Source: Bacteroidia bacterium (lineage in GTDB: Bacteria > Bacteroidota > Bacteroidia > UKL13-3). Taken from it: a DNA stretch of 64,000 nucleotides. Below the pieces are notes generated by a model. That model did not search any database. It was not told the origin of the DNA and saw only the letters and a list, made by a program, of their open reading frames with translations. Both the position numbers and the translations under genes were made by a program. Position 1 is the stretch's first letter. Each line of letters begins with the position of its first letter. Positions 16,801-37,900 of the stretch are shown in pieces. The stretch is taken from assembly GCA_025454875.1 (NCBI GenBank), contig JALONP010000008.1:38616-102615 (forward strand). Direction: 5' to 3'.

Positions 16801-19014
16801 ATGAACCACGTTCCACACCTTATTTCTGATTTGGCGCTCATTTTATTGGCGGCTGCGTTTGTAACCTTACTGTTTAAATGGCTTAAGCAGCCGGTAGTGC
16901 TAGGTTATATTATTGCCGGATTGTTAGTGAGTCCGAACTTTACCTTGTTTCCAAGTGTGACCGAACTCAAAAGCATTCAGATTTGGGCCGAGATTGGTGT
17001 TATTTTTATGCTGTTCAGCTTGGGCTTGGAGTTTAGTTTTAAAAAACTACTTAAGGTTGGCAGCACAGCAACCATTACAGGTTTGTTCGAAATTACCTGT
17101 ATGTTGTTACTGGGTTTTGGGGTTGGCCAAGCATTGGCATGGAGCAAAATAGACAGCCTTTTTTTAGGAGGCATCATTGCCATTTCATCTACAACCATCA
17201 TCTTCAGAGCGTTTGACGAACTCAATATCAAAACCAACAAATTTGCAAGTTTGGTAATTGGCGTTTTGGTAATAGAAGACCTTGTTGCAGTATTGTTGTT
17301 GGTGCTTTTGTCAACAGTGGCGGTTAGTCCAACTGTTGAGGGTAGTGAGTTGGTAGGTTCTATTGTAAAGCTGCTTTTCTTTTTGGTGTTGTGGTTTATT
17401 TCAGGAATCTTTTTGTTGCCTACTTTCCTAAAAAAGGCAAGCAGGCTCATGAGTGACGAAACAACCTTAATTGTTGCAATTGGTTTGTGTTTAGGAATGG
17501 TATTGCTTGCAGCGGGTGTTGGTTTTTCAGCAGCATTAGGCGCCTTTATTATGGGCAGCTTGCTTGCCGAAACAACACATGCCGAACGCATTGAGCATGT
17601 ATTTAAACCAGTAAAAGATTTATTCGGGGCCATCTTCTTTGTATCGGTTGGAATGCTCATTAACCCCGAGGTGCTTTATGCCCATATTGGTCCTGTGCTT
17701 GCCATTACATTGGCTGTGGTTTTGGGTAAATTATTGTTTGTTACCATTGGCGCTTTGTTAAGTGGCCAACCTTTAAACCACGCCATACAAGCAGGAACAA
17801 GCATGGCCCAAATTGGCGAATTCTCTTTTATCATTGCTACCCTCGGACTTACCTTGGGTGTTACAGGTTCGTTTTTGTACCCCATCGCAGTTGGTGTTTC
17901 TGTAATTACCACTTTTGCTACACCGTACATGATTAAACTTGCCGATCCTCTTTACAACTGGCTGGTTAAACATTTACCGCAAAGGTGGACCAACTCCTTA
18001 AACCGCTACAGTGCAGGAACCCAACAAATAAAAGCTGAATCGGATTGGAAAGTGGTGTTCACTGCATTTACCCAAGTAATGGTTATAAACAGTGTGCTCA
18101 TTGTTGCCATCATTCTCATTTTTAAAAATGTGATTGAACCCGTATTTTGGATATCGGGGTCGGTTGGCAGTTTTGTAGTTGCCTTGTTAGCACTAGCAGC
18201 CATATCACCTTTTTGGTGGATGCTCACAGCTAAAAAAATCAATAAGCCCTCGTATACCCAATTGTGGCTTAACAAAAACAACCGAGGCCCCATTATCATG
18301 CTCGAAATTTTGCGCGTAAGCATTGGCATCATTCTCATTGGGGTATTGTTTGTACAGTTTTTTTCAACGGCCATTGCGTTTAGTCTTGCTGCAGGCATTA
18401 TGCTCATTGTTGGTTTTGTGTTTTCGCGCAAGCTGCATGCTTTTACCTTGCGCATCGAAAAACGTTTTTACCACAATTTGTATTTGCGCGAGTCGATGCA
18501 ACCCAAATCGGTGGTGTCGCATTTATTGCCTTGGGATGCACATTTGGCTTATGTAGATATTGAACCCAACTCTGATTGGCTTGGCAAACCTTTAGGTGCC
18601 TTGCAACTGCGCGAGCAATACGGTATTAATATTGCCATGATAGAGCGCGGAAACCAAACCTTGATGGTTCCAGGAAAAACGGAGCGCTTGTATCCGTACG
18701 ACCGCATTGCCTTAATTGGAACCGATGAACAAATTACCCAGTTTAAAGAAGCCCTGGCTGCAACTGCAGTGCCTCAAACCCAAACGCTTGCTGTTTCGGC
18801 AGTGGCATTGGTGCAGTTTAAAGTAAATCCGGGTTTTGTGTACTTGGGTAAAAGCATACGCGAAAGTGCCCTACGCGAACGGTCGCAAGGATTGGTTGTG
18901 GGCATTGAGCGCAACGGACAGCGGTATTTAAACCCCGAATCTACTTGGGTATTTGAGTTGGATGATGTGGTGTGGATTGTGGGCGATGAATCTAAAATAA
19001 AAGCGCTGTACTAA
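16801..19014 (+). CDS. CPA2-family monovalent cation:proton antiporter with C-terminal RCK/TrkA-C domains.
   Basis: About 12 TM helices, then two soluble TrkA-C-like domains; 737 aa. Confidence 0.75.
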   Translation: MNHVPHLISDLALILLAAAFVTLLFKWLKQPVVLGYIIAGLLVSPNFTLFPSVTELKSIQIWAEIGVIFMLFSLGLEFSFKKLLKVGSTATITGLFEITCMLLLGFGVGQALAWSKIDSLFLGGIIAISSTTIIFRAFDELNIKTNKFASLVIGVLVIEDLVAVLLLVLLSTVAVSPTVEGSELVGSIVKLLFFLVLWFISGIFLLPTFLKKASRLMSDETTLIVAIGLCLGMVLLAAGVGFSAALGAFIMGSLLAETTHAERIEHVFKPVKDLFGAIFFVSVGMLINPEVLYAHIGPVLAITLAVVLGKLLFVTIGALLSGQPLNHAIQAGTSMAQIGEFSFIIATLGLTLGVTGSFLYPIAVGVSVITTFATPYMIKLADPLYNWLVKHLPQRWTNSLNRYSAGTQQIKAESDWKVVFTAFTQVMVINSVLIVAIILIFKNVIEPVFWISGSVGSFVVALLALAAISPFWWMLTAKKINKPSYTQLWLNKNNRGPIIMLEILRVSIGIILIGVLFVQFFSTAIAFSLAAGIMLIVGFVFSRKLHAFTLRIEKRFYHNLYLRESMQPKSVVSHLLPWDAHLAYVDIEPNSDWLGKPLGALQLREQYGINIAMIERGNQTLMVPGKTERLYPYDRIALIGTDEQITQFKEALAATAVPQTQTLAVSAVALVQFKVNPGFVYLGKSIRESALRERSQGLVVGIERNGQRYLNPESTWVFELDDVVWIVGDESKIKALY

Positions 19015-19838
19015 ACACGGTAAATGCCATCGGGAGCGAGGCGAACCTGCTTGTTTTTGTAAAGCATGCCTATGGTCATCTTAAAGGTTTTTTTGCTCAT
19101 GCCAAATACTTGGTATATGGTTTCGGCATCGGTTTTATCGTGGTAAGGTAAAAAGCCATTTGCTTTTTCGAGCGCGTTTACAATTTTATCAGCTTCGGTT
19201 TCGGTGCGTTTGTAACCTGGCTTGCCCAACATCAAATCTATTTTGTGATCGTCTTTTATCTTTTTCACAAACGCAGTGAACTGCTCCCCTATTTCCAATT
19301 TTTTAAATACCTCATTGTAATGCAAAAGGCCAAGGTGTTTGGTATTGATGATGCACAAATAACCCAAATCTGTTTTGCGTAATACCATTGCCTTTACCAC
19401 TTCCAACTCTTTTACGGTAAGTGTTTCGTTCGAAAAATCATCATCAATTAACTCGGTTGCCGCAATGCGGTCGCTAAGCAAATCGTGTATGATTTTAACA
19501 ACCACGGTATCGCCCACTTCAGTATCAAACAATTGTTGGGGCAAGGGCAAAAACAAATCTTTTTTTAAACCCCAATCTAAAAATGCACCATCTTGGTTCA
19601 CTTCGCGTACTGTTAAGGCAACATAATCGCCCACTTGACCCTTGGGTTTAAGGGTGGTTACCGTACGTTGGCGGTTGGCATCGAGGTATACAAATACTTG
19701 CACATAACTGCCCACTTCGGTTTTGGGAGGGGCAAATTTTTGGTCAATGAGCACACCATCGGCACCATCATCGAGCATCAAATGCATTTTGGTTTTACCA
19801 ATAACTTTGAGGTTGTGAAATTTACCGAGTGCCAACAT
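19011..19838 (-). CDS. S1 RNA-binding domain protein (CvfB/YitL family).
   Basis: Tandem S1-like domains plus a C-terminal winged-helix-like region, about 275 aa as in CvfB. Confidence 0.6.
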   Translation of the reverse strand: MLALGKFHNLKVIGKTKMHLMLDDGADGVLIDQKFAPPKTEVGSYVQVFVYLDANRQRTVTTLKPKGQVGDYVALTVREVNQDGAFLDWGLKKDLFLPLPQQLFDTEVGDTVVVKIIHDLLSDRIAATELIDDDFSNETLTVKELEVVKAMVLRKTDLGYLCIINTKHLGLLHYNEVFKKLEIGEQFTAFVKKIKDDHKIDLMLGKPGYKRTETEADKIVNALEKANGFLPYHDKTDAETIYQVFGMSKKTFKMTIGMLYKNKQVRLAPDGIYRV

Positions 19839-20183: not shown

Positions 20184-21707
20184 TTAAGCTTGTTCACTTT
20201 CATTCTGAGGTTGTCTTAGTTTATAATAAATTTCCAAACTTTCAATTAATGCATCTTTAAGCTGCAATCCATTGTTAAATCGAAGTTGTTGCCAGTGTCG
20301 AAGATTAAATCCTACACTTGCATCTGTTTTTGCATCTGGCTGATTACGCATTAGTAAAATAAAATTCTCTTGCTCATACCCCTTTGCTCTATTCAGCCCC
20401 ATTAAAAAGCCCACTTCATGATAAACATTTATGTTTTTTGTACTGAGATCAGCAATAAGCAACCCGGTATTATTAATCAATTCGAGTATTTCATCTGATA
20501 TGGTATAGGCATGGCCTTTATTCACCTCATCAATACGAATATGCTTTATTTTCAAATCAAGGTTGTGTCTACGGTTTGCCTCAGCTATTGCTTCCTCAAT
20601 GGCCTGCTTTACTTCTTTAGATGCTTCATCAAACTGCATAGAGATAAATACATTGCGTGACCGTGCCTTTAGAATTGTATCGTATACTACAATTAAGTCA
20701 TTGGCTGTAATATCAGCAATCGTGTAAATGTGGTTATAGAGTACCCAGTTTTTGAACGACTTCCTGAAATCACCATGCTGTAAGTTCAACTCGTAATAAA
20801 CAAATGCACTAAATAAAGCAGGGCTATTACATTCTTTCAAAACAGCATGTTGTTGATAGATTACATTGACATTATTAACAGCCTGCATTACTTTATTTAT
20901 TTCTGCATCATTGTTCTGGATAATCTTCTTTTGCAGCAATAACTTGAACAGTTCCAAAAGCACTGTACGCTTTATAATTACTTCTTCACCATTATCCTTC
21001 CATGTTTTGAACGATTCAGAAATTGCCTGTAATACTTCTAAATCAACTCTGTCCTTTACTTTTCTTGCAAAATAAAAATGAGGGCCAAAAGATGGATTAT
21101 TCTTTAATTTTTCATCAGTGAATATGTCTACTTCATCCAATATCAACCTTAAATTTTCTTCCGATGTAAGCGGTACAGACTTACTATTAATGTTATGGAA
21201 AATCACTCTTTTATACTCTTCACTTTGGGGTGTATCTGGAAAGAGAATTAAACAAAAGGGTGTCATATAATCATTAAACTCTGCCGCTTCAGGAGCTGCA
21301 CTCAGTCGGTGGTTTCCATCTATTCTGAAAAAAGGCTTATTTGTTTTCAACCAACCTTCTGGTATGTCAATAATTACTTTGTGTACCCCAGATTGAGTGG
21401 ATTTAATGCTAAAAGAATCCACATTCGATTTAAATGTTTTTCGGTCAAGAATATTCTTTAGCGGGTCAATGCCGGAAAGCCCTTTTGTAAAATCATATTT
21501 GAGGTTGTATGACAGTATTACCTCAGGAAAGAATAGATACTCTTTATCTTTTAAAAAGTTTACGATTGCTTCCCGTTGTTCGTCAATTAAGTTACGCTGA
21601 TAGCTAAGATCAGCTTCAGAACTTCTTGCTAAATCACCCATTGGGGCAAAGCCCCGAACGCAGGTGAAACCGCCTAAGGATTGTGATAATATGCCTTCTA
21701 ATCTCAT
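20184..21707 (-). CDS. DndB-like DGQHR-domain (ParB/Srx-fold) protein fused to a C-terminal nucleoside-2-deoxyribosyltransferase/SLOG-like Rossmann domain.
   Basis: The N-terminus matches the DGQHR family pattern: QRNLIDEQREAIVNFL...FFPEVILS, then FFRIDGNHRLSAA. The last ~150 aa follow the NDT-like pattern NVFISMQFDEASKE...LLIADLS..NINVYHEVGFLMGL. Confidence 0.6.
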   Translation of the reverse strand: MRLEGILSQSLGGFTCVRGFAPMGDLARSSEADLSYQRNLIDEQREAIVNFLKDKEYLFFPEVILSYNLKYDFTKGLSGIDPLKNILDRKTFKSNVDSFSIKSTQSGVHKVIIDIPEGWLKTNKPFFRIDGNHRLSAAPEAAEFNDYMTPFCLILFPDTPQSEEYKRVIFHNINSKSVPLTSEENLRLILDEVDIFTDEKLKNNPSFGPHFYFARKVKDRVDLEVLQAISESFKTWKDNGEEVIIKRTVLLELFKLLLQKKIIQNNDAEINKVMQAVNNVNVIYQQHAVLKECNSPALFSAFVYYELNLQHGDFRKSFKNWVLYNHIYTIADITANDLIVVYDTILKARSRNVFISMQFDEASKEVKQAIEEAIAEANRRHNLDLKIKHIRIDEVNKGHAYTISDEILELINNTGLLIADLSTKNINVYHEVGFLMGLNRAKGYEQENFILLMRNQPDAKTDASVGFNLRHWQQLRFNNGLQLKDALIESLEIYYKLRQPQNESEQA

Positions 21708-21712
21708 ACTTG

Positions 21713-22549
21713 CTATTTTATGATTTCACTCATTATTTCAAATTTCTCAAGCAATGTTTCTACAAACTGCTGCTTGGTAATGAAATACTTTTTGTATTTA
21801 CTTTCTAATGCTTTGCTGTAAGTAACATTAATGCGATAGTACTCTTTACCATTTGCCTTAACTGTTGTTGACATTTCAATAACTTTTGCCGAAGGCATAA
21901 ACAAAATGTGTTCGCCAATTTCAGCCTTATCAGGATCATAGGCGATGCCTACCAAATAAAAAGCATGATGTGCCCGGAAAGTGTTCTTGCCTATACTTAA
22001 AATAAGCTGGTCTGCTTTTTTTACCTGAAACCTTGATTTTACCTGTAAGTATATTGGGAGAAAAACTCCTTCTTTCAAGATAATTAAATCTATTCCCCTA
22101 GTATCTATGACAGGTCGGTACACATTTAATAACCCCTGGCTATTGAGCAAAATAATTTCTTTCACTCTGTCTTCAGCTATATTGCCTTTGGCCTGACTTG
22201 ACAAACCTGAAATATCTACGAGTGTTTCGTCTTCTTCTTCCTCCGCATCTTCAATTGATGGGGCAGCAGTCTTTGAAATAGTAATCAACTGCTGTGTTAC
22301 ATTTACTGACACTACATCACCCGGCTTTAATTTGTTACGCTTGTAAAATGTAGTAAGGCCAAATATGCGGTAATGATCTGCATTGTAATTTTTTGAAGCT
22401 ACTTGCTTCTCATCATAAAGTTTCACCTGCACCTGTGCAGTTTCATTAGGTAAGAGATCTCGTACCTGAGCCGGTACGTAAATAAACCCAAGACGGGTTT
22501 CTACCTCTATCAACTTTCGCTGGTATGTTATGGTTTGGGTATCTTTCAT
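21713..22549 (-). CDS. Small predicted nuclease: N-terminal B3-like (EcoRII-N/BfiI-like) DNA-binding pseudobarrel plus C-terminal PD-(D/E)xK nuclease core.
   Basis: N-terminal region LGFIYVPAQVRDLLP...YRIFGLTTFYKRNKLKPGDVVSV looks B3-like. C-terminal ...IDTRGIDLIIL...YLQVKSR fits a D-x(n)-(E/Q)xK core. The start overlaps the S-gene stop by ATGA. Confidence 0.5.
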   Translation of the reverse strand: MKDTQTITYQRKLIEVETRLGFIYVPAQVRDLLPNETAQVQVKLYDEKQVASKNYNADHYRIFGLTTFYKRNKLKPGDVVSVNVTQQLITISKTAAPSIEDAEEEEDETLVDISGLSSQAKGNIAEDRVKEIILLNSQGLLNVYRPVIDTRGIDLIILKEGVFLPIYLQVKSRFQVKKADQLILSIGKNTFRAHHAFYLVGIAYDPDKAEIGEHILFMPSAKVIEMSTTVKANGKEYYRINVTYSKALESKYKKYFITKQQFVETLLEKFEIMSEIIK

Positions 22550-23955
22550 GATGCTGTATTTAAAATCAGTTTTTCAATTTCCTTTTTGGCAGCTTCAAAA
22601 TCCATTTTCGCTTGTACCAAAAGTTGATGAGCTTCTTCTGTTCTCACTCTTACTTCCTTGGCAATCATTTGCTGAACCGATAGTGGTGGGGAAGGAATAA
22701 GTAAATGCTTTACATCATCCGGAGACAAATGCCCATTTGTAGCACCGGTTACATTACGTTTGATTTCAATTTGCGATGGTTTGCACCGTAAAAAAGCATA
22801 CACAAAATAAGGATCGAACTTGCTTTTATCGGTTAGAAACTTTACGATATCACCCCCTAAATAATATTTGCCAGGATATGACCAGTAACCCACCTTACCG
22901 ATAGTAGCTCCGGTGATTACTACCAAAATATCATCTTGCTTTAGTTCCTGATAAGCATTGAACACATCTTTTGCAGTTAATAGATTATCAAGGTCAATTG
23001 TGCCATCCATATTAATGGAGTTAATCTGCACAACTTTATTATCTCCTTCTTTTTCCTCCTGCTTTGGTAAATAGCCTTTCACTAAAAGGCCGGATAATAT
23101 TTGCTTCAGAAACACTGCACCATAATTCCCTTTTGCTATTGATTCCTTTACATCGTAGAAATAGGTTTTATTAAAAAATGGATCAAACCTATTACCCGAA
23201 ACTTTGGTAAAGGAGGTATTGAATGTTCGGTTTTCAATTGTATTTGCAGGTTCTGGTGGTAAGGAAATACCCAACTCATTCAAAAGGTAATCATCAATAC
23301 CATCTAACAGCTTTGCCGATTGATGTTCAGTAGACTTTCTTTGTATTCTTGCTTCAGTATAAAGTTTAGCAATTCGCTCTTGTTCATCAATTGGTGGTAC
23401 TGGGATTTTAAGAGCCCTTACTTCCTGTGCATTGACATTAGTCATTCCTGCTATTTGACGACTAACTGCATCAATTTGCATTCTGCCAATACTTGAGTTT
23501 ATAAAAAATGAAACATATTCAGGTAGCAACTTTGAATTATCCAATTCTACTCGAATAAAGTATGAAGCAAAAACCCAATCGCCATCTTCATGAAAAACAG
23601 CACATTTACCAACAAGCTCCTTAGAGTTTGTTCTGTTGAAAAGAATATCTCCTTTTCTGACTTTGTAACGTTTAAATTCTATCTCATCAAACTGAATGTA
23701 TTTCAAATCGTTTAATCTCCATTCCTCATCTTGCAGGTTTAGCATCCGAAGCATCGGATAGCCTCCATTTTCTTTGCTTGCAAGCGAAGAAGAGCCATAT
23801 TGTAGGCGTAAAATTGCTTTGCCTAAACGCTCAATCTTGTAAGGCGATTTCTCAATGGTTTTTAGAAACTTCTCATAAAGTAAATGGTAATTGGGATCCC
23901 ATCTAATAATTCCAAGCTCGCCCCGATTAAGTAAGAAATACTTATCTACACTCAA
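22546..23955 (-). CDS. hsdS: Restriction-modification specificity (S) subunit with two target-recognition domains.
   Basis: Two TRDs, each followed by a conserved helical spacer (IPVPPIDEQERIA / LIPSPPLSVQQMIA); 469 aa. Confidence 0.85.
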   Translation of the reverse strand: MSVDKYFLLNRGELGIIRWDPNYHLLYEKFLKTIEKSPYKIERLGKAILRLQYGSSSLASKENGGYPMLRMLNLQDEEWRLNDLKYIQFDEIEFKRYKVRKGDILFNRTNSKELVGKCAVFHEDGDWVFASYFIRVELDNSKLLPEYVSFFINSSIGRMQIDAVSRQIAGMTNVNAQEVRALKIPVPPIDEQERIAKLYTEARIQRKSTEHQSAKLLDGIDDYLLNELGISLPPEPANTIENRTFNTSFTKVSGNRFDPFFNKTYFYDVKESIAKGNYGAVFLKQILSGLLVKGYLPKQEEKEGDNKVVQINSINMDGTIDLDNLLTAKDVFNAYQELKQDDILVVITGATIGKVGYWSYPGKYYLGGDIVKFLTDKSKFDPYFVYAFLRCKPSQIEIKRNVTGATNGHLSPDDVKHLLIPSPPLSVQQMIAKEVRVRTEEAHQLLVQAKMDFEAAKKEIEKLILNTAS

Positions 23956-23963
23956 ATCGGGGC

Positions 23964-26171
23964 TTAGACGAAAAAACGATCTTGGCCTTGAATTACTTGC
24001 TCGATGAAAACCTTTAACTGGTCCGCAGCAGTTTCCAATTCATTAATGCCTGATTTTCTCCCGACAGCATCATAGCCAATATTCTCAGCAATCACCATCA
24101 GTATTGGGTAATTGGTTACTTCATCGGCTATTAGCTTCAGATATTCATCTTGCAGATTCTCTTTAATTTCATTTATCTGCTCATTGTACAATTGTGTGAT
24201 GTCGGCCTTCCATGCTTTAAACTCTTCCGTTTTCTCTGCTACTTTTTTACCCTTAGCACCCCATTGGGTGGGTGGAGCAGCTCCATCCAATACAGCAACA
24301 TTTTCGGCCAATTCCCAATTAATGGCATTGTAATCAAAACCCTTATGCTCTTTGAGTACCTGTTTCTTTTCTTCATCAAGCCTTTTTATTTCATCGGCAA
24401 ATTGCGGCTGAACAAATAAGCGGTCTTGCAGCTTTTCCTTTGCATCAATGATTTTTTTAGATTCCTTATCAGACAGCTTTCTCAAGAAGAGAACAGAACT
24501 TTTTACACCAGCACCATTTGCAGTGAAAGCGGTTTGGGGCAGAGATACAACCGCTACAATACGGTAGTGCTCTTCTATCCAATCTCTAACATATTGGGAA
24601 CTGCTATTGGTTAGTATTCCATCAGGAATTACTACCGCCAAAAAGCCGCCCGGCTTTAAAAATCTGTGGCATTGCTCAATAAACAACACCTCTGTACTTT
24701 GGCTGGTACGAGTACCCAGCGTGTAGTTACTTTTCTGGCGTTTATCAATCCAGTTTACATCGGTAATACCCAGTTTATAATTTTTGAGGTATGCCTGTTC
24801 AGTTTGCTTGATGCTGCTACCAAAAGGCGGATTGGTAATGATGAAGTCAAAATTATTTCGTTGAAAACCTTTGTTTCCAGTACGTTCAGCAATCACTTCA
24901 GGATCGTACAAACCATCAATCGCCACAACATTCGTATGACCATCATCGTGAATAATCATGTTCATTTTGGCGGTACGTGCTATGCCTTCAGAAATCTCTA
25001 TTCCATAGAGATTGTTTTCAGCAAAGTCGTGCCAGTATTTGTGGTGTTGTACAGAGCCCTTCTTGAAGTAACCTTCTTCTGCTTTTTTATCGGCTTGCTT
25101 TCTTACCTTATCCAATGCATAGAGCAAGAAACCACCAGAGCCGCAGGACGTATCTAATACAAGACTGTCATTTTCTATCGGCAATACCTTCACAATAAAA
25201 TCAACTACTTCCCGAGGAGTAAAATATTGACCAAAATCACCCCTGAAAAATGAACCAAGGAATGTTTCAAAAGCCCGGCCTTTGCTATCGAGGTCTGTAT
25301 CGTGCAGGTTAAGTTCTGCTAAATACCCAACTATTGTTTTTAGTTCATTTGCTGATAACCTGATTGGTTCTTTAAATACTTCGGGATCTTTCTTTTTGCC
25401 CTCCTCATATATTCCCTGAATACGTTTTAACAATTCATCGGGATGTTCACCAGTGTATTCCTGGAAGTCGTATGGCTGTCCTGATTTTCGGGGTTTACGT
25501 TCATCCCAAATTTTACAAAAGATGAGTTTATCAAGTTCGTCAAATGCTTCAGATGGATTACGCTTTCCACCAGCCCAAAGTGCCTGATGGGCTTGTTCAA
25601 AAACTTTGGTCAAATCGCTTTGCTCTACAATCTTTATATCCCTTGCAGGATTTCCAACTTCATCCCTACCACCCTTGTAAAACTTGGCAAGTGTAATGCC
25701 TGTTTGCCCAAATCTGGGAATATCAGCAATGATGTTTTGTACCCGTTCTAATGTCGGATAGTTTTTTACATCATAAGATTTTGTTTTAATGCCAGATGTT
25801 ATCTGAACGAAACGAGCACCCAAAGCAACAGCATTGCCAAAGCCTTGCTCAATTGCCTGATTGAACTCTGCTTCTGATATTTTTTGCTTTTTGCATTCTA
25901 TAACGATGTAAGGCTTCTTCTTTTCATCATCCTCAAAAACGACAATATCCGCCAAATCGCTTGGAGTTCTTTTGGGTACAATAAATTCCAAACTGATTCG
26001 CTGTGGTTTATACCCGTATTCGATTATCAAGGACAGATAAGTCTCTGCTCTCACTTGCTCTTCAGGGTCAGAGAAACGATACCGCTTGCCCTGTGCCTGA
26101 TAGATTATGTATTTGTCATCATCTTCAAACGAAACGTGACCGAGTTCAATGCCTTTACCTATTATATTCAT
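23964..26171 (-). CDS. N6-adenine DNA methyltransferase (gamma class, HsdM-like) with an N-terminal HsdR-N-like PD-(D/E)xK nuclease domain. Architecture is BcgI-A-like (Type IIB) or a Type I M subunit without a separate R.
   Basis: MTase motifs: motif I-like LVLDTSCGSGGFL and motif IV NPPFG. N-terminal ~190 aa match HSDR_N-like: ETYLSLIIEYGY...ADIVVFEDD...YIVIECKK (E...D...ExK). I chose the start at the internal Met (MNIIGKG) to avoid a 44-bp overlap with abiEii; the ORF could extend to 26225. Confidence 0.8.
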   Translation of the reverse strand: MNIIGKGIELGHVSFEDDDKYIIYQAQGKRYRFSDPEEQVRAETYLSLIIEYGYKPQRISLEFIVPKRTPSDLADIVVFEDDEKKKPYIVIECKKQKISEAEFNQAIEQGFGNAVALGARFVQITSGIKTKSYDVKNYPTLERVQNIIADIPRFGQTGITLAKFYKGGRDEVGNPARDIKIVEQSDLTKVFEQAHQALWAGGKRNPSEAFDELDKLIFCKIWDERKPRKSGQPYDFQEYTGEHPDELLKRIQGIYEEGKKKDPEVFKEPIRLSANELKTIVGYLAELNLHDTDLDSKGRAFETFLGSFFRGDFGQYFTPREVVDFIVKVLPIENDSLVLDTSCGSGGFLLYALDKVRKQADKKAEEGYFKKGSVQHHKYWHDFAENNLYGIEISEGIARTAKMNMIIHDDGHTNVVAIDGLYDPEVIAERTGNKGFQRNNFDFIITNPPFGSSIKQTEQAYLKNYKLGITDVNWIDKRQKSNYTLGTRTSQSTEVLFIEQCHRFLKPGGFLAVVIPDGILTNSSSQYVRDWIEEHYRIVAVVSLPQTAFTANGAGVKSSVLFLRKLSDKESKKIIDAKEKLQDRLFVQPQFADEIKRLDEEKKQVLKEHKGFDYNAINWELAENVAVLDGAAPPTQWGAKGKKVAEKTEEFKAWKADITQLYNEQINEIKENLQDEYLKLIADEVTNYPILMVIAENIGYDAVGRKSGINELETAADQLKVFIEQVIQGQDRFFV

Positions 26172-26181
26172 GCCGATATTT

Positions 26182-27012
26182 TTATTGTTTTTTGAATTCT
26201 TTAAAGTCAATGGAAGTTTCCTCAATTTTCTCCAGCAACTCCGTTCGCACTAATTCAAAAGCGGTTGCCTGGTCGTATTTTTCTGTTGGACGTATGAGGG
26301 CTGCTATGTCTCCTATAAATTCATCGTCCTGCATTTTGGCCTCCATGTTTTGCAGATAAACCTTTTGCGTAGGTGGTTCATCTACCACAAAATCCATGTA
26401 GGCATGATAGCATTGCAACAGGGCGTCTTTATCCATGCCTGGCACTTGCACCAGTGCCTTGTACATGTCGTATAAATCACGGCCTTTTCTGCGTTGGTAT
26501 AAGGCCCTGAGTTTTGTACCCAGCAGTTCTTCCAATTGGTAAGTGGTGATGTTGCAGGCACCGGTAAACCATGAGGAATTTACCTGAAAGGGAAATTGCT
26601 GGTAGCCCAATACAGTGAAATGTTCCCGGCAATTGGTTTCTACTTTGAGGCGGAGGTTTTGCACCGGAGGGAACTCAGATTCAAAACGGTAATGCAGGGT
26701 AAAATTGTTTTCTTTCTGCTTGCGGGCAGGGTCACCTAAAAAGGCCAGCCTCTCTCGTAAACGGTCCACCACAGGGCCGAATGGTTCTGCGGTGATTTGA
26801 ACCAAATCAATATCCTCAGAATATCTGGGTTGAGGCTGTAAATACAATTTGTGCAAAGCCGTCCCCCCTCTGAATGCTAAACTTGATGCTAACCATTCAT
26901 CTGAAAAGATTTCTACCAAGGAACGACAAATCACCAGGTCTTGCTCCACCTGTTCGTTGGTTTGCCAGGGTACCTGACTGGCCCATTCTGTTATGTATGC
27001 CTGTGGTATCAT
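26182..27012 (-). CDS. abiEii: AbiEii/AbiGii-family nucleotidyltransferase toxin (type IV TA / abortive infection).
   Basis: Signature FRGGTALHKLYL ... RYSEDIDL (DUF1814 nucleotidyltransferase motif). Confidence 0.85.
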   Translation of the reverse strand: MIPQAYITEWASQVPWQTNEQVEQDLVICRSLVEIFSDEWLASSLAFRGGTALHKLYLQPQPRYSEDIDLVQITAEPFGPVVDRLRERLAFLGDPARKQKENNFTLHYRFESEFPPVQNLRLKVETNCREHFTVLGYQQFPFQVNSSWFTGACNITTYQLEELLGTKLRALYQRRKGRDLYDMYKALVQVPGMDKDALLQCYHAYMDFVVDEPPTQKVYLQNMEAKMQDDEFIGDIAALIRPTEKYDQATAFELVRTELLEKIEETSIDFKEFKKQ

Positions 27013-27064: not shown

Positions 27065-27979
27065 CTATAGGTCGATTTCAATTGTAGTGTTTACGATTAC
27101 TTTCCATCTTTCGTCTGATGCAAAACCTTTGGCCGGAGCTGAGGCTTTCAGCGGTATCCGAAACAAAGGGGCATTGTTATTTTGTAAGGCCATGTATAAG
27201 GCGTTAGCCAGCGGCTGGTTGTCAAATATTTTATCCAACAGATAGCCCAAACGCTGCAAGGCAGTTACCGGAACATGCTGCAGCAGATTGGCATTAAATG
27301 CGTTGGGTTGAATACTTTCGGCTAATTCAGCCAAAACGGTGGCCACCCTGTTGATGCCACCTACCCGTTTGGCGTACTGTATCAGATCGGTGGCGGTTAA
27401 GGCAGGGTTTGAAATTTTTAAGTATCCGGTCTCGGTTTTCCGGGTGTCTAACAGTGTTGCAGGTATTTCCTTTTTGCTGATGTAGTTCAGCTTCAGCCCT
27501 TTTTTCTGCATAGGTCGCAGCACGGGAAAGCCGGTAACCACAAAAAACTCCTGTGGCTGCTGGTGCGATGCTCCATGATAGGCGGCTGCGTTTAGTAAAG
27601 CCAGGTAATAAGGCCGGTCTAATTCCTTCATAAACGCATCTAAAAACAAGGTGGGGGGAAGGATTCCCTTTGACCTGTATTGGGGCGGTATAATGAGGTA
27701 ATACCCTTTATGGATGGAAATGATCTGCTCTTTATCTACCAGCCTTTTCAAGGCGAACTTATTGGCCGTATCTGACTGCCCGGGAAAATCGGCACGGAAC
27801 TGGTGCAGGGCAAAAGCATATTTACCCTTTGCCAGCAGGTGGTTTACCCAATCTTCTGCACTCTTATATTGCCTTGAATCTTCCAAGAGAGTAATTTTTT
27901 GCGAAAGGTAGTGAAAACTACTACCTTTTGCAAATGTTTTCTCTTTATTTTTTGCTTTGCTTATCATATAGAGTAGCAA
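27065..27979 (-). CDS. abiEi: AbiEi-family antitoxin/transcriptional regulator.
   Basis: Immediately upstream of abiEii on the same strand. About 300 aa with an N-terminal wHTH-like and C-terminal AbiEi-like region. Confidence 0.65.
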   Translation of the reverse strand: MLLYMISKAKNKEKTFAKGSSFHYLSQKITLLEDSRQYKSAEDWVNHLLAKGKYAFALHQFRADFPGQSDTANKFALKRLVDKEQIISIHKGYYLIIPPQYRSKGILPPTLFLDAFMKELDRPYYLALLNAAAYHGASHQQPQEFFVVTGFPVLRPMQKKGLKLNYISKKEIPATLLDTRKTETGYLKISNPALTATDLIQYAKRVGGINRVATVLAELAESIQPNAFNANLLQHVPVTALQRLGYLLDKIFDNQPLANALYMALQNNNAPLFRIPLKASAPAKGFASDERWKVIVNTTIEIDL

Positions 27980-28280: not shown

Positions 28281-29657
28281 TTACTTACCGATACAAAACT
28301 TACTAAAGATATTGCCCAACAAATCATCGGTGGTGATTTGCCCTGTGATTTCGCCCAGGTGGAAAATGGCTTTACGGATATCGAGCGCCAGTAACTCGCC
28401 ACTAAACCCATTCTGAATGGCATTAAGTACTTGCGTTAAGGCCTGATACGACAACTGAAACGACTCGTAATGCCGCGTATTGGTTACCACCAAGTTATTG
28501 CTGCTTTGGTTGTATGCAGTAAACTGTTGGAGCGCTTGCAGCAATTGCTCCATGCCTTGTTTATGCAATGATGAAATGGGAATAACCTGCTGCCCGTTTG
28601 CAGCTGCTGTGTTTCCTAAATCAATTTTATTGGCCACCAACAATAAGGTGTAATTGCCTTTAGGCAGTTGGGCCAACTCCTCGTTTAATTGGTTTTGGGT
28701 GGTATTGCTTGCATCAAACACGTACAGCACCAGTGCTGCTTTTTCAATGGCTTCGTACGTACGCTCAATGCCAATGGCCTCAATGGTATCGGCTCCTTTG
28801 CGTATACCTGCTGTATCAATTAACCTAAACACAATGCCATTCACCACAAAGGTTTCTTCGATGGTATCGCGTGTGGTGCCTGCAATATTGCTTACAATGG
28901 CGCGTTCCTCGTTTAACAATGCATTAAGCAAGGTAGATTTACCTGCATTGGGCTTACCTGCAATAACAGTAGGCACTCCATTTTTAACCACATTGCCGTA
29001 CTGAAACGATTGCAACAGCTGTTCTAACAATTGGTGTATTTGGGTTACCAATGCATGCAGTTCGGTTTTACTTGCAAAGGCAACATCTTCTTCGGCAAAA
29101 TCGAGTTCGAGTTCAATAAGCGAAGCAAAGTTAATCAGTTGCTCACGTAGGTGCTCAATTTGTTTAGAGTAACCGCCTCGCATCTGTTGCATGGCTGTTT
29201 GGTGTGCCGCTGCACTCTCGGCAGCAATTACATCGGCAACGGCTTCGGCTTGGGCCAAGTCCATTTTTTTGTTTAAAAATGCACGCAGGGTAAACTCGCC
29301 CGGCTTTGCCAAGCGCATTCCAGAGCGCACTAGCAACTCCAATACTTTTTGCAAAATATAGGTTGATCCGTGGCAACTAATTTCTACCGAATCTTCGCCC
29401 GTAAACGAAGTTGGGTTGCGAAACACACTCACCAATACTTCATCTAACAGAATATTGCCATCTTTAATTTTACCAAAATGAACCGTATGTGATGCGGCTG
29501 CTTCGAGGTTTTTGCCTGCAAACAATTGGTTAACGATGGCAATGGATTGTGGCCCACTGATGCGGATAACACCAATTGCTCCAACACCACTTGGGGTGGC
29601 CAGGGCGCAAATGGTATCCGACAAATCGGTATGAGGAAAATGGTTCATGCGCGGCAA
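28281..29657 (-). CDS. mnmE: tRNA modification GTPase MnmE (TrmE).
   Basis: G-domain motifs GKPNAGKSTLLNAL, DTAG; C-terminal CIGK. Confidence 0.95.
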   Translation of the reverse strand: MPRMNHFPHTDLSDTICALATPSGVGAIGVIRISGPQSIAIVNQLFAGKNLEAAASHTVHFGKIKDGNILLDEVLVSVFRNPTSFTGEDSVEISCHGSTYILQKVLELLVRSGMRLAKPGEFTLRAFLNKKMDLAQAEAVADVIAAESAAAHQTAMQQMRGGYSKQIEHLREQLINFASLIELELDFAEEDVAFASKTELHALVTQIHQLLEQLLQSFQYGNVVKNGVPTVIAGKPNAGKSTLLNALLNEERAIVSNIAGTTRDTIEETFVVNGIVFRLIDTAGIRKGADTIEAIGIERTYEAIEKAALVLYVFDASNTTQNQLNEELAQLPKGNYTLLLVANKIDLGNTAAANGQQVIPISSLHKQGMEQLLQALQQFTAYNQSSNNLVVTNTRHYESFQLSYQALTQVLNAIQNGFSGELLALDIRKAIFHLGEITGQITTDDLLGNIFSKFCIGK

Positions 29658-35656: not shown

Positions 35657-37900
35657 ATGAAAGCAGCGAAACCGGCAAAAAAAACTGCAACCAAAGTTCC
35701 CTCTTCAAATGGCTCCAAAAGCTATAACGCTAAACAAAGCCTGCAAGAGTTTTTTGGCTTTGATAGTTTTAAAGATGAGCAAGAGCAAATCATTAACAGC
35801 TTGCTTGACGGCAACGATTTGTTTGTGATTATGCCAACAGGTGGTGGTAAAAGTTTATGCTACCAATTGCCTGCGCTCATGATGCCTGGAACTGCTATTA
35901 TCATTTCTCCGCTCATTGCGTTGATGAAAAATCAAGTAGATCAAATTCGCTCATTTAGCCACGATAATGTTGCTCATTTTTTAAACTCATCGTTAACCAA
36001 AACAGAAATTACCAAGGTTAAAAAAGATGTTACAGATGGCAATACCAAAATGCTTTACATTGCTCCTGAAACGCTCAAAAAGGATGAAACGCTTGACTTT
36101 TTAAAAAGCATCAACATCTCATTTGTAGCAGTAGATGAAGCGCATTGTATTTCGGAATGGGGACATGATTTTAGACCTGAATACAGGCGCATCAAATTGA
36201 TGGTAAAAGAGATTAAGGATGTACCCATGATGGCTTTAACTGCCACTGCAACACCAAAGGTTCAACAAGATATTCAGAAGAACTTGCAAATGAACGATGC
36301 ATTGGTGTTTAAATCGTCCTTTAACCGCAGCAACCTGTACTACGAAGTTCGGCCTAAAGGTAAAAAAGCCGATGTAATGAAAGATTTGGTGAGTTATGTA
36401 AAAACCAAAAAAGGGAAATCAGGTGTTATCTATTGTTTAAGCCGCAAAAAGGTTGAAGAAATTGCCGAGGTGCTTAAAGCAAATGGCATTAAAGCATTAC
36501 CTTACCATGCAGGCTTAGACGCCAAAACACGCGCTGCACACCAAGATGCCTTTTTGATGGAAGATACCGATGTGATTGTGGCTACTATCGCATTCGGGAT
36601 GGGAATTGATAAACCAGATGTACGCTTTGTTATTCATTACGATGTTCCAAAGAGCATTGAAGGGTATTACCAAGAAACGGGTAGGGCTGGACGAGATGGA
36701 ATAGATGGCGACTGTATTTTGTATTACAACCCAGCTGATATTGACAAGTTAGAAAAGTTTATGAAAGACAAGCCAGTTGCTGAACGCGAAATTGGCGAGT
36801 TATTGATTTTTGAAACACAAGCTTTTGCTGAAACCGCAGCATGCCGCAGAAAATTCTTACTCCATTATTTTGGTGAAGAGTTTAATGATCAACATTGCGA
36901 CAAAATGTGCGACAACTGCCGCCACCCTAAGCAAAAAGAAGACGCAAAAGCATCGGCTGTAATGGCCCTTGAACTGATCAAAACCATTTCTGAAAAACAC
37001 GTACTCAAGCATGTTGTGGATGTTTTGGTTGGAAACAAAACACATGAGGTTACATTAAACGACCACCATAAATCGCCCTTTTTTGGCAAAGGCAAAAAGC
37101 ATGACGAAAACTACTGGAAATCCTTGATAAGGGTATTGTTGCTGCAAGGGTATGTAAATAAGAATATTGAAAATTATGGTTTGTTAAGCATCAGTGCCAA
37201 AGGTGAAGCCTACCTTAAAAAACCAACTAAGCTTGAAATTGCCATAGACCAAACATTTGAACGTGTGCTCGACTCTGATGAAGACTCGAATGTAGAAACG
37301 GAGAATGTGTATGACGAAGTATTGTTTGGCATGCTCAAAGACCTTACAAAAAAGGTAGGTAAACAATTAAACTTGCCACCCTATGTAATTTTTCAAGAAC
37401 CATCACTTGAAGAAATGGCATTTAAATTTCCGATTACCATTGATGAGTTGAGTAAAATTTCGGGAGTAAATAAAGGCAAGGCCACCAAGTACGGCAAACC
37501 ATTTATTGACCTAATTGGCAAGTATGTTGAAGACAACCAAATTGAGCGATCAGAAGATGTGGTTGTAAAATCAGTTGTAAATAAATCCGCTAAAAAAATT
37601 GCCATCATCACCAATATTGACAAAAAGCAAAGCCTCGAAGACATTGCACGCAGCATTGGAATGAATATGCAAGAATTGTTAGATGAGATTCAGAACATTG
37701 TGTACTCAGGTACCAAGCTTAATTTAAAAACCTATATCAACGACATAGCTGATGAAGACATTCAAGATGAAGTGATGGACTTTTTTAGAAAAAGCCAAAA
37801 CGATTCGCTTGAAGAAGCATTGGCCGAATATGGAACCGAATTTTCAAAAGAAGATTTGCAACTGCTACGCATTCATTTTATTTCGGAAGTTGCATATTAA
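35657..37900 (+). CDS. recQ: ATP-dependent DNA helicase RecQ.
   Basis: Helicase motifs (MPTGGGKSLCYQLPA, DEAHCISEWGHDFRPEY), Zn-binding Cys cluster, HRDC-like C-terminus. Confidence 0.95.
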   Translation: MKAAKPAKKTATKVPSSNGSKSYNAKQSLQEFFGFDSFKDEQEQIINSLLDGNDLFVIMPTGGGKSLCYQLPALMMPGTAIIISPLIALMKNQVDQIRSFSHDNVAHFLNSSLTKTEITKVKKDVTDGNTKMLYIAPETLKKDETLDFLKSINISFVAVDEAHCISEWGHDFRPEYRRIKLMVKEIKDVPMMALTATATPKVQQDIQKNLQMNDALVFKSSFNRSNLYYEVRPKGKKADVMKDLVSYVKTKKGKSGVIYCLSRKKVEEIAEVLKANGIKALPYHAGLDAKTRAAHQDAFLMEDTDVIVATIAFGMGIDKPDVRFVIHYDVPKSIEGYYQETGRAGRDGIDGDCILYYNPADIDKLEKFMKDKPVAEREIGELLIFETQAFAETAACRRKFLLHYFGEEFNDQHCDKMCDNCRHPKQKEDAKASAVMALELIKTISEKHVLKHVVDVLVGNKTHEVTLNDHHKSPFFGKGKKHDENYWKSLIRVLLLQGYVNKNIENYGLLSISAKGEAYLKKPTKLEIAIDQTFERVLDSDEDSNVETENVYDEVLFGMLKDLTKKVGKQLNLPPYVIFQEPSLEEMAFKFPITIDELSKISGVNKGKATKYGKPFIDLIGKYVEDNQIERSEDVVVKSVVNKSAKKIAIITNIDKKQSLEDIARSIGMNMQELLDEIQNIVYSGTKLNLKTYINDIADEDIQDEVMDFFRKSQNDSLEEALAEYGTEFSKEDLQLLRIHFISEVAY

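Follow-up and report, generated by a model that had tools for sequence, protein, structure and literature searches.

A probable BsaXI-like restriction-modification enzyme without a motor subunit, and its conserved third gene, in a defense island of a Bacteroidia bacterium

Introduction

BsaXI, a Type IIB restriction-modification (R-M) enzyme, has nuclease and methylase fused in one RM chain that associates with a separate specificity (S) subunit. The two proteins form an (RM)2S complex and are sufficient in vitro (PMC11997821; PMC9159934). In the nuclease domain of the RM chain, the substitutions E73A, D90A, E105A, and K107A abolish cleavage. Residues D816 and E823 of a C-terminal paddle are also required, the D816A derivative retaining a low partial activity, and relatives of less than 800 amino acids (aa) possess only a knob (PMC11997821). 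The report on the cloning of BsaXI does not mention neighboring genes (PMC9159934). A second system, HsdMSc of Zymomonas mobilis ZM4 (ZMO1934/ZMO1933), combines an HsdR_N-HsdM fusion with an S subunit. It methylates CAGN4CTG and reduces plasmid uptake without requiring the only HsdR of the cell, which is plasmid-borne (PMC8432527); the gene adjoining ZMO1933 is not commented on in that paper. Fusions of this kind, joining an HsdR nuclease to HsdM, have been viewed by Bower et al. as motor-less Type I enzymes (PMC6158711). Here, we analyze a locus present in a 64,000-nucleotide stretch, the window, of the genome of a Bacteroidia bacterium (contig JALONP010000008.1, positions 38,616 to 102,615). 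The locus encodes a fused nuclease-methyltransferase (M, for which RM would be a better name), an S subunit, a putative stand-alone nuclease (X), and a third partner of the M-S pair (Y). We propose, with a probability of about 0.65, that M together with S constitutes a BsaXI-like R-M enzyme devoid of a motor.

M is related to RM.BsaXI

M is encoded on the minus strand (26171..23964) and comprises 735 residues if translation is initiated at an ATG located 8 nucleotides past the stop codon of abiEii, or 753 residues if it is initiated at an upstream TTG that overlaps abiEii. The latter numbering is used for residues throughout. Pfam detects an HSDR_N_2 domain at residues 54-157 (25755..26066, minus strand; E 1.1e-14), predicted to be an N-terminal PD-(D/E)xK nuclease, and an N6_Mtase domain at residues 313-603 (E 3.4e-37), the predicted N6-adenine methyltransferase core (24417..25289, minus strand). 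The PADLOC model PDLC03030 (MTase_I) covers the full length of the protein with a score of 584 bits. The nuclease domain contains ADIVVF at position 92 and IECKK at position 109. In the methylase, DTSCGSGGF (motif I, position 358) comes before NPPFG (motif IV, position 465), an order that assigns the enzyme to the gamma class. A first-pass annotation of the window, made from the sequence alone, had described an HsdR-N-type nuclease and a gamma-class methyltransferase in a single chain; the Pfam domains and the motifs that it quoted are in place, and its coordinates (22546-26171) coincide with the extent of M and S.

Among proteins of solved structure, RM.BsaXI (8w0p; E 9.3e-35) is the one most closely related to M, residues 53-589 of M being aligned with residues 46-627 of that chain. 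The alignment takes in the nuclease domain, helical connector, and methylase and resumes at the β-strand that follows the knob (YPILMVIAENIGYD in M versus YPIFMAEAENVGYK in RM.BsaXI). Solved Type I HsdM chains align with the methylase core of M alone, with E values of 7e-14 or weaker. M and S thus resemble BsaXI in that a single chain harbors an N-terminal PD-(D/E)xK domain, a helical connector, a gamma-class N6-methyladenine (m6A) methylase, and a knob region, and in that a separate S subunit with two target-recognition domains (TRDs) is present without a motor. The two RM chains differ in length (735 versus 916 residues) and their identity is low. M lacks a paddle of the BsaXI type because only about 35 residues remain past the YPILMVIAENIGYD strand (residue 706 of 753). 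By alignment, M is a member of the short class of BsaXI relatives devoid of the C-terminal paddle.

The first-pass annotation had made its reading depend on the catalytic residues of the N-terminal domain, and these are present. In an alignment of BsaXI with 60 M-type proteins encoded by related loci, D93, E110, and K112 of M coincide with D90, E105, and K107 of BsaXI and are conserved in 97-98% of the relatives. E55/E56, E120, and Q127 are conserved to the same degree. E55/E56, E80, D93, E110, and K112 are candidate catalytic residues of the nuclease domain.

The same annotation had assigned the system to a BcgI-like Type IIB organization. The layout of one RM chain plus S and the homology with RM.BsaXI (E 9e-35) support the Type IIB part of this assignment; the relevant relative is BsaXI, not BcgI. 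Type IIB enzymes are defined by double-strand cuts made at fixed distances to either side of their site, a property that M and S may share. BcgI has the same general layout, with a nuclease-methylase A chain and an S-like B chain. According to models presented in the BsaXI paper (PMC11997821), the BcgI group differs by an EcoKI-like methylase and by a C-terminal helical tail that takes the place of the knob, a distinction that we draw from this description. HsdMSc of Zymomonas resembles the system of the window by its fusion of HsdR_N to HsdM, its separate S subunit, and the lack of a cognate HsdR, the likeness being one of described architecture. As judged by homology, the M-S pair taken alone is a member of the known BsaXI-like RM+S type.

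Exchange of a target-recognition domain in S

The S subunit (23955..22546, minus strand; 469 residues) contains two Methylase_S stretches (Pfam, E 2.1e-22), which bears out the two TRDs previously attributed to it, and matches the PADLOC Specificity_I model with a score of 242 bits. A locus from a near-identical strain (L004, a Chitinophagaceae metagenome-assembled genome; related loci are designated by L numbers) encodes AbiEi, AbiEii, M, X, and Y proteins that are 94-96% identical to those of the window. The S subunits of the two strains display only 62% identity overall because TRD1 (residues ~30-200) has diverged, with 21-38% identity, while the C-terminal half has been kept (80-100% identity). 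This pattern indicates that TRD1 was swapped between the two strains. The exchange fits an S subunit that is under diversifying selection and behaves as a working specificity subunit.

Comparison with MADS

M and S also match components of the defense system MADS, in which a bipartite m6A site is likewise targeted. The NCBIfam MAD2 model aligns over positions 12-578 with residues 46-595 of M (325 bits, for a cut-off of 720), and the MAD5 model matches S (88 bits, for a cut-off of 400). MAD3, MAD4, MAD6, MAD7, and MAD8 are absent, the flanking genes encoding instead AbiEi, AbiEii, X, Y, CvfB, and MnmE, and neither X nor Y matches a MADS model of NCBIfam. MAD6, MAD7, and MAD8 are mandatory in the detection model of the MADS authors. 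Membership of the system in MADS was rejected on the basis of the scores, which are far below the cut-offs, and of the absence of the remaining mad genes.

Y is a near-obligate partner of the M-S clade

Y is encoded on the minus strand (20184..21707; 507 residues). It is predicted to consist of an N-terminal DGQHR-like domain of putative ParB/Srx fold, a helical middle part, and a C-terminal NDT/TIR-like domain of putative flavodoxin fold. DGQHR domains are defined by a QR signature, the DGQHR pentapeptide, and FxxxN (PMC4619093). The corresponding positions of Y are Q37-R38, D130-G-N-H-R134, and F170...N174 (FHNIN, residues 170-174), all of which are invariant in 35 sequences. The pentapeptide reads DGNHR rather than DGQHR, and the match to TIGR03187 (32.5 bits, E 7e-8) remains below the cut-off of 58.85. 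Sub-threshold matches of the N-terminal domain were also obtained with GmrSD_N (E 0.018) and, by Foldseek, with ParB-CDP (probability 0.9). The C-terminal domain contains FISMQF at position 354 and NVYHEVG at position 427, including the invariant E431; the matches at the level of fold are weak, and an NDT/TIR-like N-glycosidase activity of this domain is a lead only. No named match for Y was found in PADLOC, NCBIfam, Pfam, or PHROGs. The family is wholly unannotated and large: Y is matched by no fewer than 1471 clusters at 90% identity and, at 50% identity, by 282 clusters with E ≤1e-30 and 542 with E ≤1e-10, in many phyla.

The linkage of Y to M and S was analyzed in 84 Y loci, 47 of which, with 4.5 kb or more of sequence upstream, were informative. 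A nuclease-methylase gene was located upstream from Y on the same strand in 45 of the 47, mostly in the order M-S-Y. Four distant homologs from different phyla display the order [HSDR_N_2 + N6_Mtase]-S-Y, and in all four the stop codon of S overlaps the start codon of Y. Other arrangements exist: a single chain of 836-977 residues combines M and S in some loci, a gene of 236-252 codons separates S from Y in others, Y is placed between M and S in L016, and it directly follows S in L022. Starting from M homologs of cultured bacteria, Y was found immediately after S in two of three loci (in Pannonibacter and in a genome that bears the label Microvirga sp.). M and S without Y were found in the third (L141) and, among the loci containing X, in L019. 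Y is a near-obligate dedicated partner of this methylase clade. The first-pass annotation had set aside the two genes located downstream of S as foreign to any described Type IIB system. We likewise found no description of an M-S-Y cassette, in a literature search that left out most subscription journals, and the cassette is undescribed as far as our searches show; Y is a near-obligate partner and not an aside, and X is a hitch-hiker.

Among the 45 loci with a same-strand gene downstream from Y, this gene is Mrr-like in 13. Its slot is the one that X occupies in the window, though in a different order. X itself was found in none of the 84 loci retrieved via Y. The notion that X and Y form a two-gene module independent of M and S was rejected on this ground and because Y follows M-S in every sampled phylum. 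An origin of Y in phages or plasmids was also rejected, since 2.9 million viral contigs yielded five matches and a plasmid collection a single decayed remnant.

Several Y loci depart from the usual arrangement. In L111-L118, L123, and L124, M is short (602 residues) or fused to S (836 residues), the additional gene of 236-252 codons lies between S and Y, and a gene for a 337-residue Mrr-like protein mostly follows Y. L138 (5891-8134; Leisingera thetidis plasmid NZ_CP109788.1) encodes a 747-residue 'N-6 DNA methylase' whose 3' part matches residues 113-497 of Y; the gene looks like a deletion remnant joining M to Y. In L055 (4711-8004), Y and an Mrr-like gene lie beside a truncated S (171 residues), M is missing, and an integrase gene is present upstream on the opposite strand, with two small genes between it and S. 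Thus, Y can persist once M is lost. Finally, M and S of Larkinella punicea (L141, 10821-12443) are followed, in place of Y, by genes for an XRE-type helix-turn-helix protein, an ImmA/IrrE-like M78 peptidase, and a 178-residue protein, which may constitute an alternative accessory module.

Proposed mechanism and alternatives

We propose that S recognizes a bipartite site through its two TRDs and that probably two RM chains assemble on one S subunit, by analogy with BsaXI. On host DNA, each RM chain would methylate one adenine of the site. On unmethylated incoming DNA, the N-terminal PD-(D/E)xK domains would cut, near the site as we infer, without ATP-driven translocation and without HsdR. Y would join this enzyme as a dedicated accessory, acting as a second-line effector or as a guard, and X would be a separate nuclease in the position held by Mrr-like Type IV enzymes in sister loci.

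The role assigned to Y derives from the company that such proteins keep. Proteins joining a ParB-like DUF262/DGQHR domain to one of various effector domains are known to accompany DNA-modification systems (PMC3632139), and guards of R-M systems such as PrrC are established (PMC12707154). Y resembles GmrSD, SspE, and DndB by its N-terminal ParB/Srx fold with the QR, DG(Q/N)HR, and FxxxN signatures, by the fusion of this domain to an effector, and by the proximity of modification genes. It differs from them in that its C-terminal domain is NDT/TIR-like and not of the HNH, PD-(D/E)xK, or HEPN type, and in that its matches fall below all curated cut-offs. By analogy with PrrC, which accompanies EcoprrI, and with GmrSD and SspE, Y is most likely a dedicated accessory of the enzyme, as a second-line effector or guard.

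Several points weigh against a BsaXI-like, self-contained enzyme. Cleavage and methylation by M and its close relatives are predictions. E80 of M, which corresponds to E73 of BsaXI, is kept by just 62% of the 60 relatives, and M is devoid of the paddle that, in BsaXI, carries the cleavage-required residues D816 and E823. Two genes make up BsaXI as described, and the clade of the window adds Y; since Y is near-obligate, a plain Type IIB system of two genes does not describe the clade, and such a model leaves Y unexplained. Engineered fusions of an HsdR nuclease to HsdM methylate DNA but do not restrict (PMC6158711). Defense by MADS depends on five further genes (bioRxiv 10.1101/2023.03.30.534895), so the presence of a fused HsdR-N domain leaves room for a nuclease other than the RM chain. 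Finally, the window covers 64 kb and the genome may encode an HsdR elsewhere.

A wider proposal, which we put forward tentatively and to which we give less than even odds, is that M, S, and Y constitute an undescribed three-component defense system. A Type I-like M2S core would have absorbed the nuclease domain of HsdR and Y would replace the motor subunit. Y would then be an effector triggered by unmethylated sites, or a guard firing when anti-restriction proteins block the enzyme, and might act by depletion of NAD+ or nucleotides or by excision of bases from DNA. A Type IV-like nuclease (Mrr, or X in the window) would add a further layer in about one fourth of the loci.

Y could also be the executioner, or be indispensable for restriction, with M and S writing and reading m6A in a manner comparable to phosphorothioate writing by SspBCD or Dnd. 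By way of its ParB-like sensor and NDT/TIR-like N-glycosidase domains, Y would target either DNA that lacks the mark or the pool of nucleotides or NAD+, and the HsdR-N domain of M would be auxiliary. The absence of the BsaXI paddle from M, the variability of E80, and the case of MADS, where a related methylase provides defense only together with five other genes, make this mechanism plausible. It is also in keeping with the linkage of Y to the M clade across phyla, with the location of Y between M and S in L016, with the invariance in Y of QR, DGxHR, FxxxN, and E431 of the NDT/TIR-type NVYHExG motif, and with the known partnership of ParB-like DUF262/DGQHR-effector fusions and modification systems (PMC3632139). 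Conservation of the nuclease residues of M at 97-98% is however hard to reconcile with an idle domain. In addition, the BsaXI and Zymomonas systems work, or seem to work, with RM and S (PMC11997821, PMC8432527), and M and S occur without Y in L141 and L019. We regard such an executioner or indispensable role of Y as rather unlikely.

Far less probable is an ordinary Type I M-S pair borrowing a distant HsdR. Homologs of M are named 'type I restriction enzyme M protein' or 'N-6 DNA methylase' in databases, PADLOC files M under MTase_I, and a single HsdR shared by several M-S pairs is known (PMC8432527). The system also shares with classical Type I enzymes (HsdM2S1 plus HsdR, as in EcoKI) a two-TRD S subunit, a gamma-class N6_Mtase core, the logic of a bipartite site, and TRD swapping. 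It differs by the fusion of the nuclease to M and by the lack of an HsdR or superfamily 2 (SF2) motor in the window and in related loci. As previously stated in the first-pass annotation, no HsdR is encoded by the window (64 kb), in which open reading frames of at least 500 codons were inspected and the sole SF2 helicase is RecQ (35657..37900); moreover, HsdR was found in none of the 84 Y loci within about 8 kb. M itself carries a nuclease domain whose catalytic residues are conserved, a Type IIB enzyme rather than a Type I HsdM is its nearest relative of known structure, and M does not reach the cut-off of the curated hsdM family TIGR00497 (55 bits for a cut-off of 243). The same architecture in Zymomonas restricts without the HsdR of the cell (PMC8432527). 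It is equally improbable that M and S are an orphan methyltransferase with a purely epigenetic function, a nuclease domain in decay, and no restriction activity, for although E80 is variable in the family and engineered fusions only methylate (PMC6158711), D93, E110, and K112 are intact in M and conserved in its relatives, the locus is located in a defense island with AbiE, X, and Y, and the TRD swap between two near-identical strains fits the usual turnover of defense specificities.

If M and S indeed form a self-contained BsaXI-like enzyme, the filing of this widespread family under Type I M proteins leads genome surveys to undercount motor-less R-M systems and to misreport 'incomplete Type I' loci. 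Enzymes with a swappable S subunit are useful reagents, and 2b-RAD genotyping is built on Type IIB enzymes. If Y were needed for restriction or guarded the enzyme, its combination of ParB-like and NDT/TIR-like domains would define a new class of R-M effectors and might account for the working of the short, paddle-less relatives of BsaXI.

X is a putative nuclease found in varied defense operons

X (22549..21713, minus strand; 278 residues) is encoded between S and Y. No family match was found for X in Pfam, NCBIfam, or PADLOC; its homologs form a conserved family of 175 database clusters. The predicted structure (mean predicted local distance difference test score, pLDDT, of 83) comprises two domains, a B3-type DNA-binding domain at the N-terminus and, at the C-terminus, a PD-QxK nuclease domain with the invariant residues D154...Q169-x-K171. 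The PD-QxK form occurs in Mrr-type enzymes (PMC12707154). X resembles EcoKMrr, MspJI, and EcoRII in combining a DNA-binding domain with a nuclease of the PD-(D/E)xK superfamily, the D...QxK arrangement being that of Mrr-cat, and its B3 domain resembles those of EcoRII-N, BfiI-C, and UbaLAI. It differs from these enzymes by the absence of a family match at the sequence level and by the order of its domains, B3 then nuclease. The fold of the nuclease domain is nearest to that of the homing endonuclease I-Ssp6803I.

In about 50 genome loci, X is located, on the same strand, at the 3' end of varied operons encoding classical Type I systems with HsdR, systems of the nuclease-methylase type, or Type III Mod-Res systems, and it also trails genes for a deaminase, a KAP NTPase, and SMC-like proteins. 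Since X trails so many unrelated kinds of operons, it behaves as an independent, hitch-hiking nuclease. We judge X to be a hitch-hiker that entered the cassette of this lineage between S and Y and to lie outside the M-S-Y core. The possibility that X is the missing restriction subunit of M and S was rejected because X trails Type I systems that have their own HsdR, Type III systems, and unrelated defense genes, and because the variation among S subunits has no parallel in the B3 domain of X, which is conserved.

The gene that follows X is variable and encodes a prokaryotic Argonaute (pAgo), a Schlafen-like protein, or others. A long pAgo (Piwi domain, ~690 residues) directly follows X in L019 and L021, and a pAgo is located one to three genes downstream from X in L001 (12373-15914), L006, and L017, with a DEAD/ResIII helicase after it in L001. 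Two to three genes past the pAgo, L017, L019, and L021 encode a protein of 377-382 residues related to the product of the gene that follows X in L003. In several M-S-X-Y loci of Bacteroidota, a conserved gene of ~144 codons without family match lies between S and X (L001, 8807-9241; L005; L007). It lies between Y and X in L022 and is absent from the window.

Organization of the locus

M, S, X, and Y belong to a tight row of six genes on the minus strand flanked by mnmE (29657..28281) and cvfB (19838..19011). The S and X genes overlap by 4 bp and X is separated from Y by 5 bp. A scan of the operon for promoters and terminators detected fewer promoter-like sites than in shuffled sequences, the consensus being unsuited to Bacteroidota. 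The GC content is 0.34-0.38 at positions 20-24 kb of the window versus about 0.42 in the flanks, and AbiE, M-S, X, and Y are together in a defense island located in a low-GC stretch. The first two genes of the row encode the AbiEi antitoxin (27979..27065, minus strand) and the AbiEii nucleotidyltransferase toxin (27012..26182, minus strand), directly upstream from M. This pair is also present in L004 and is absent from the other M-S-X-Y loci, and it is therefore a separate module.

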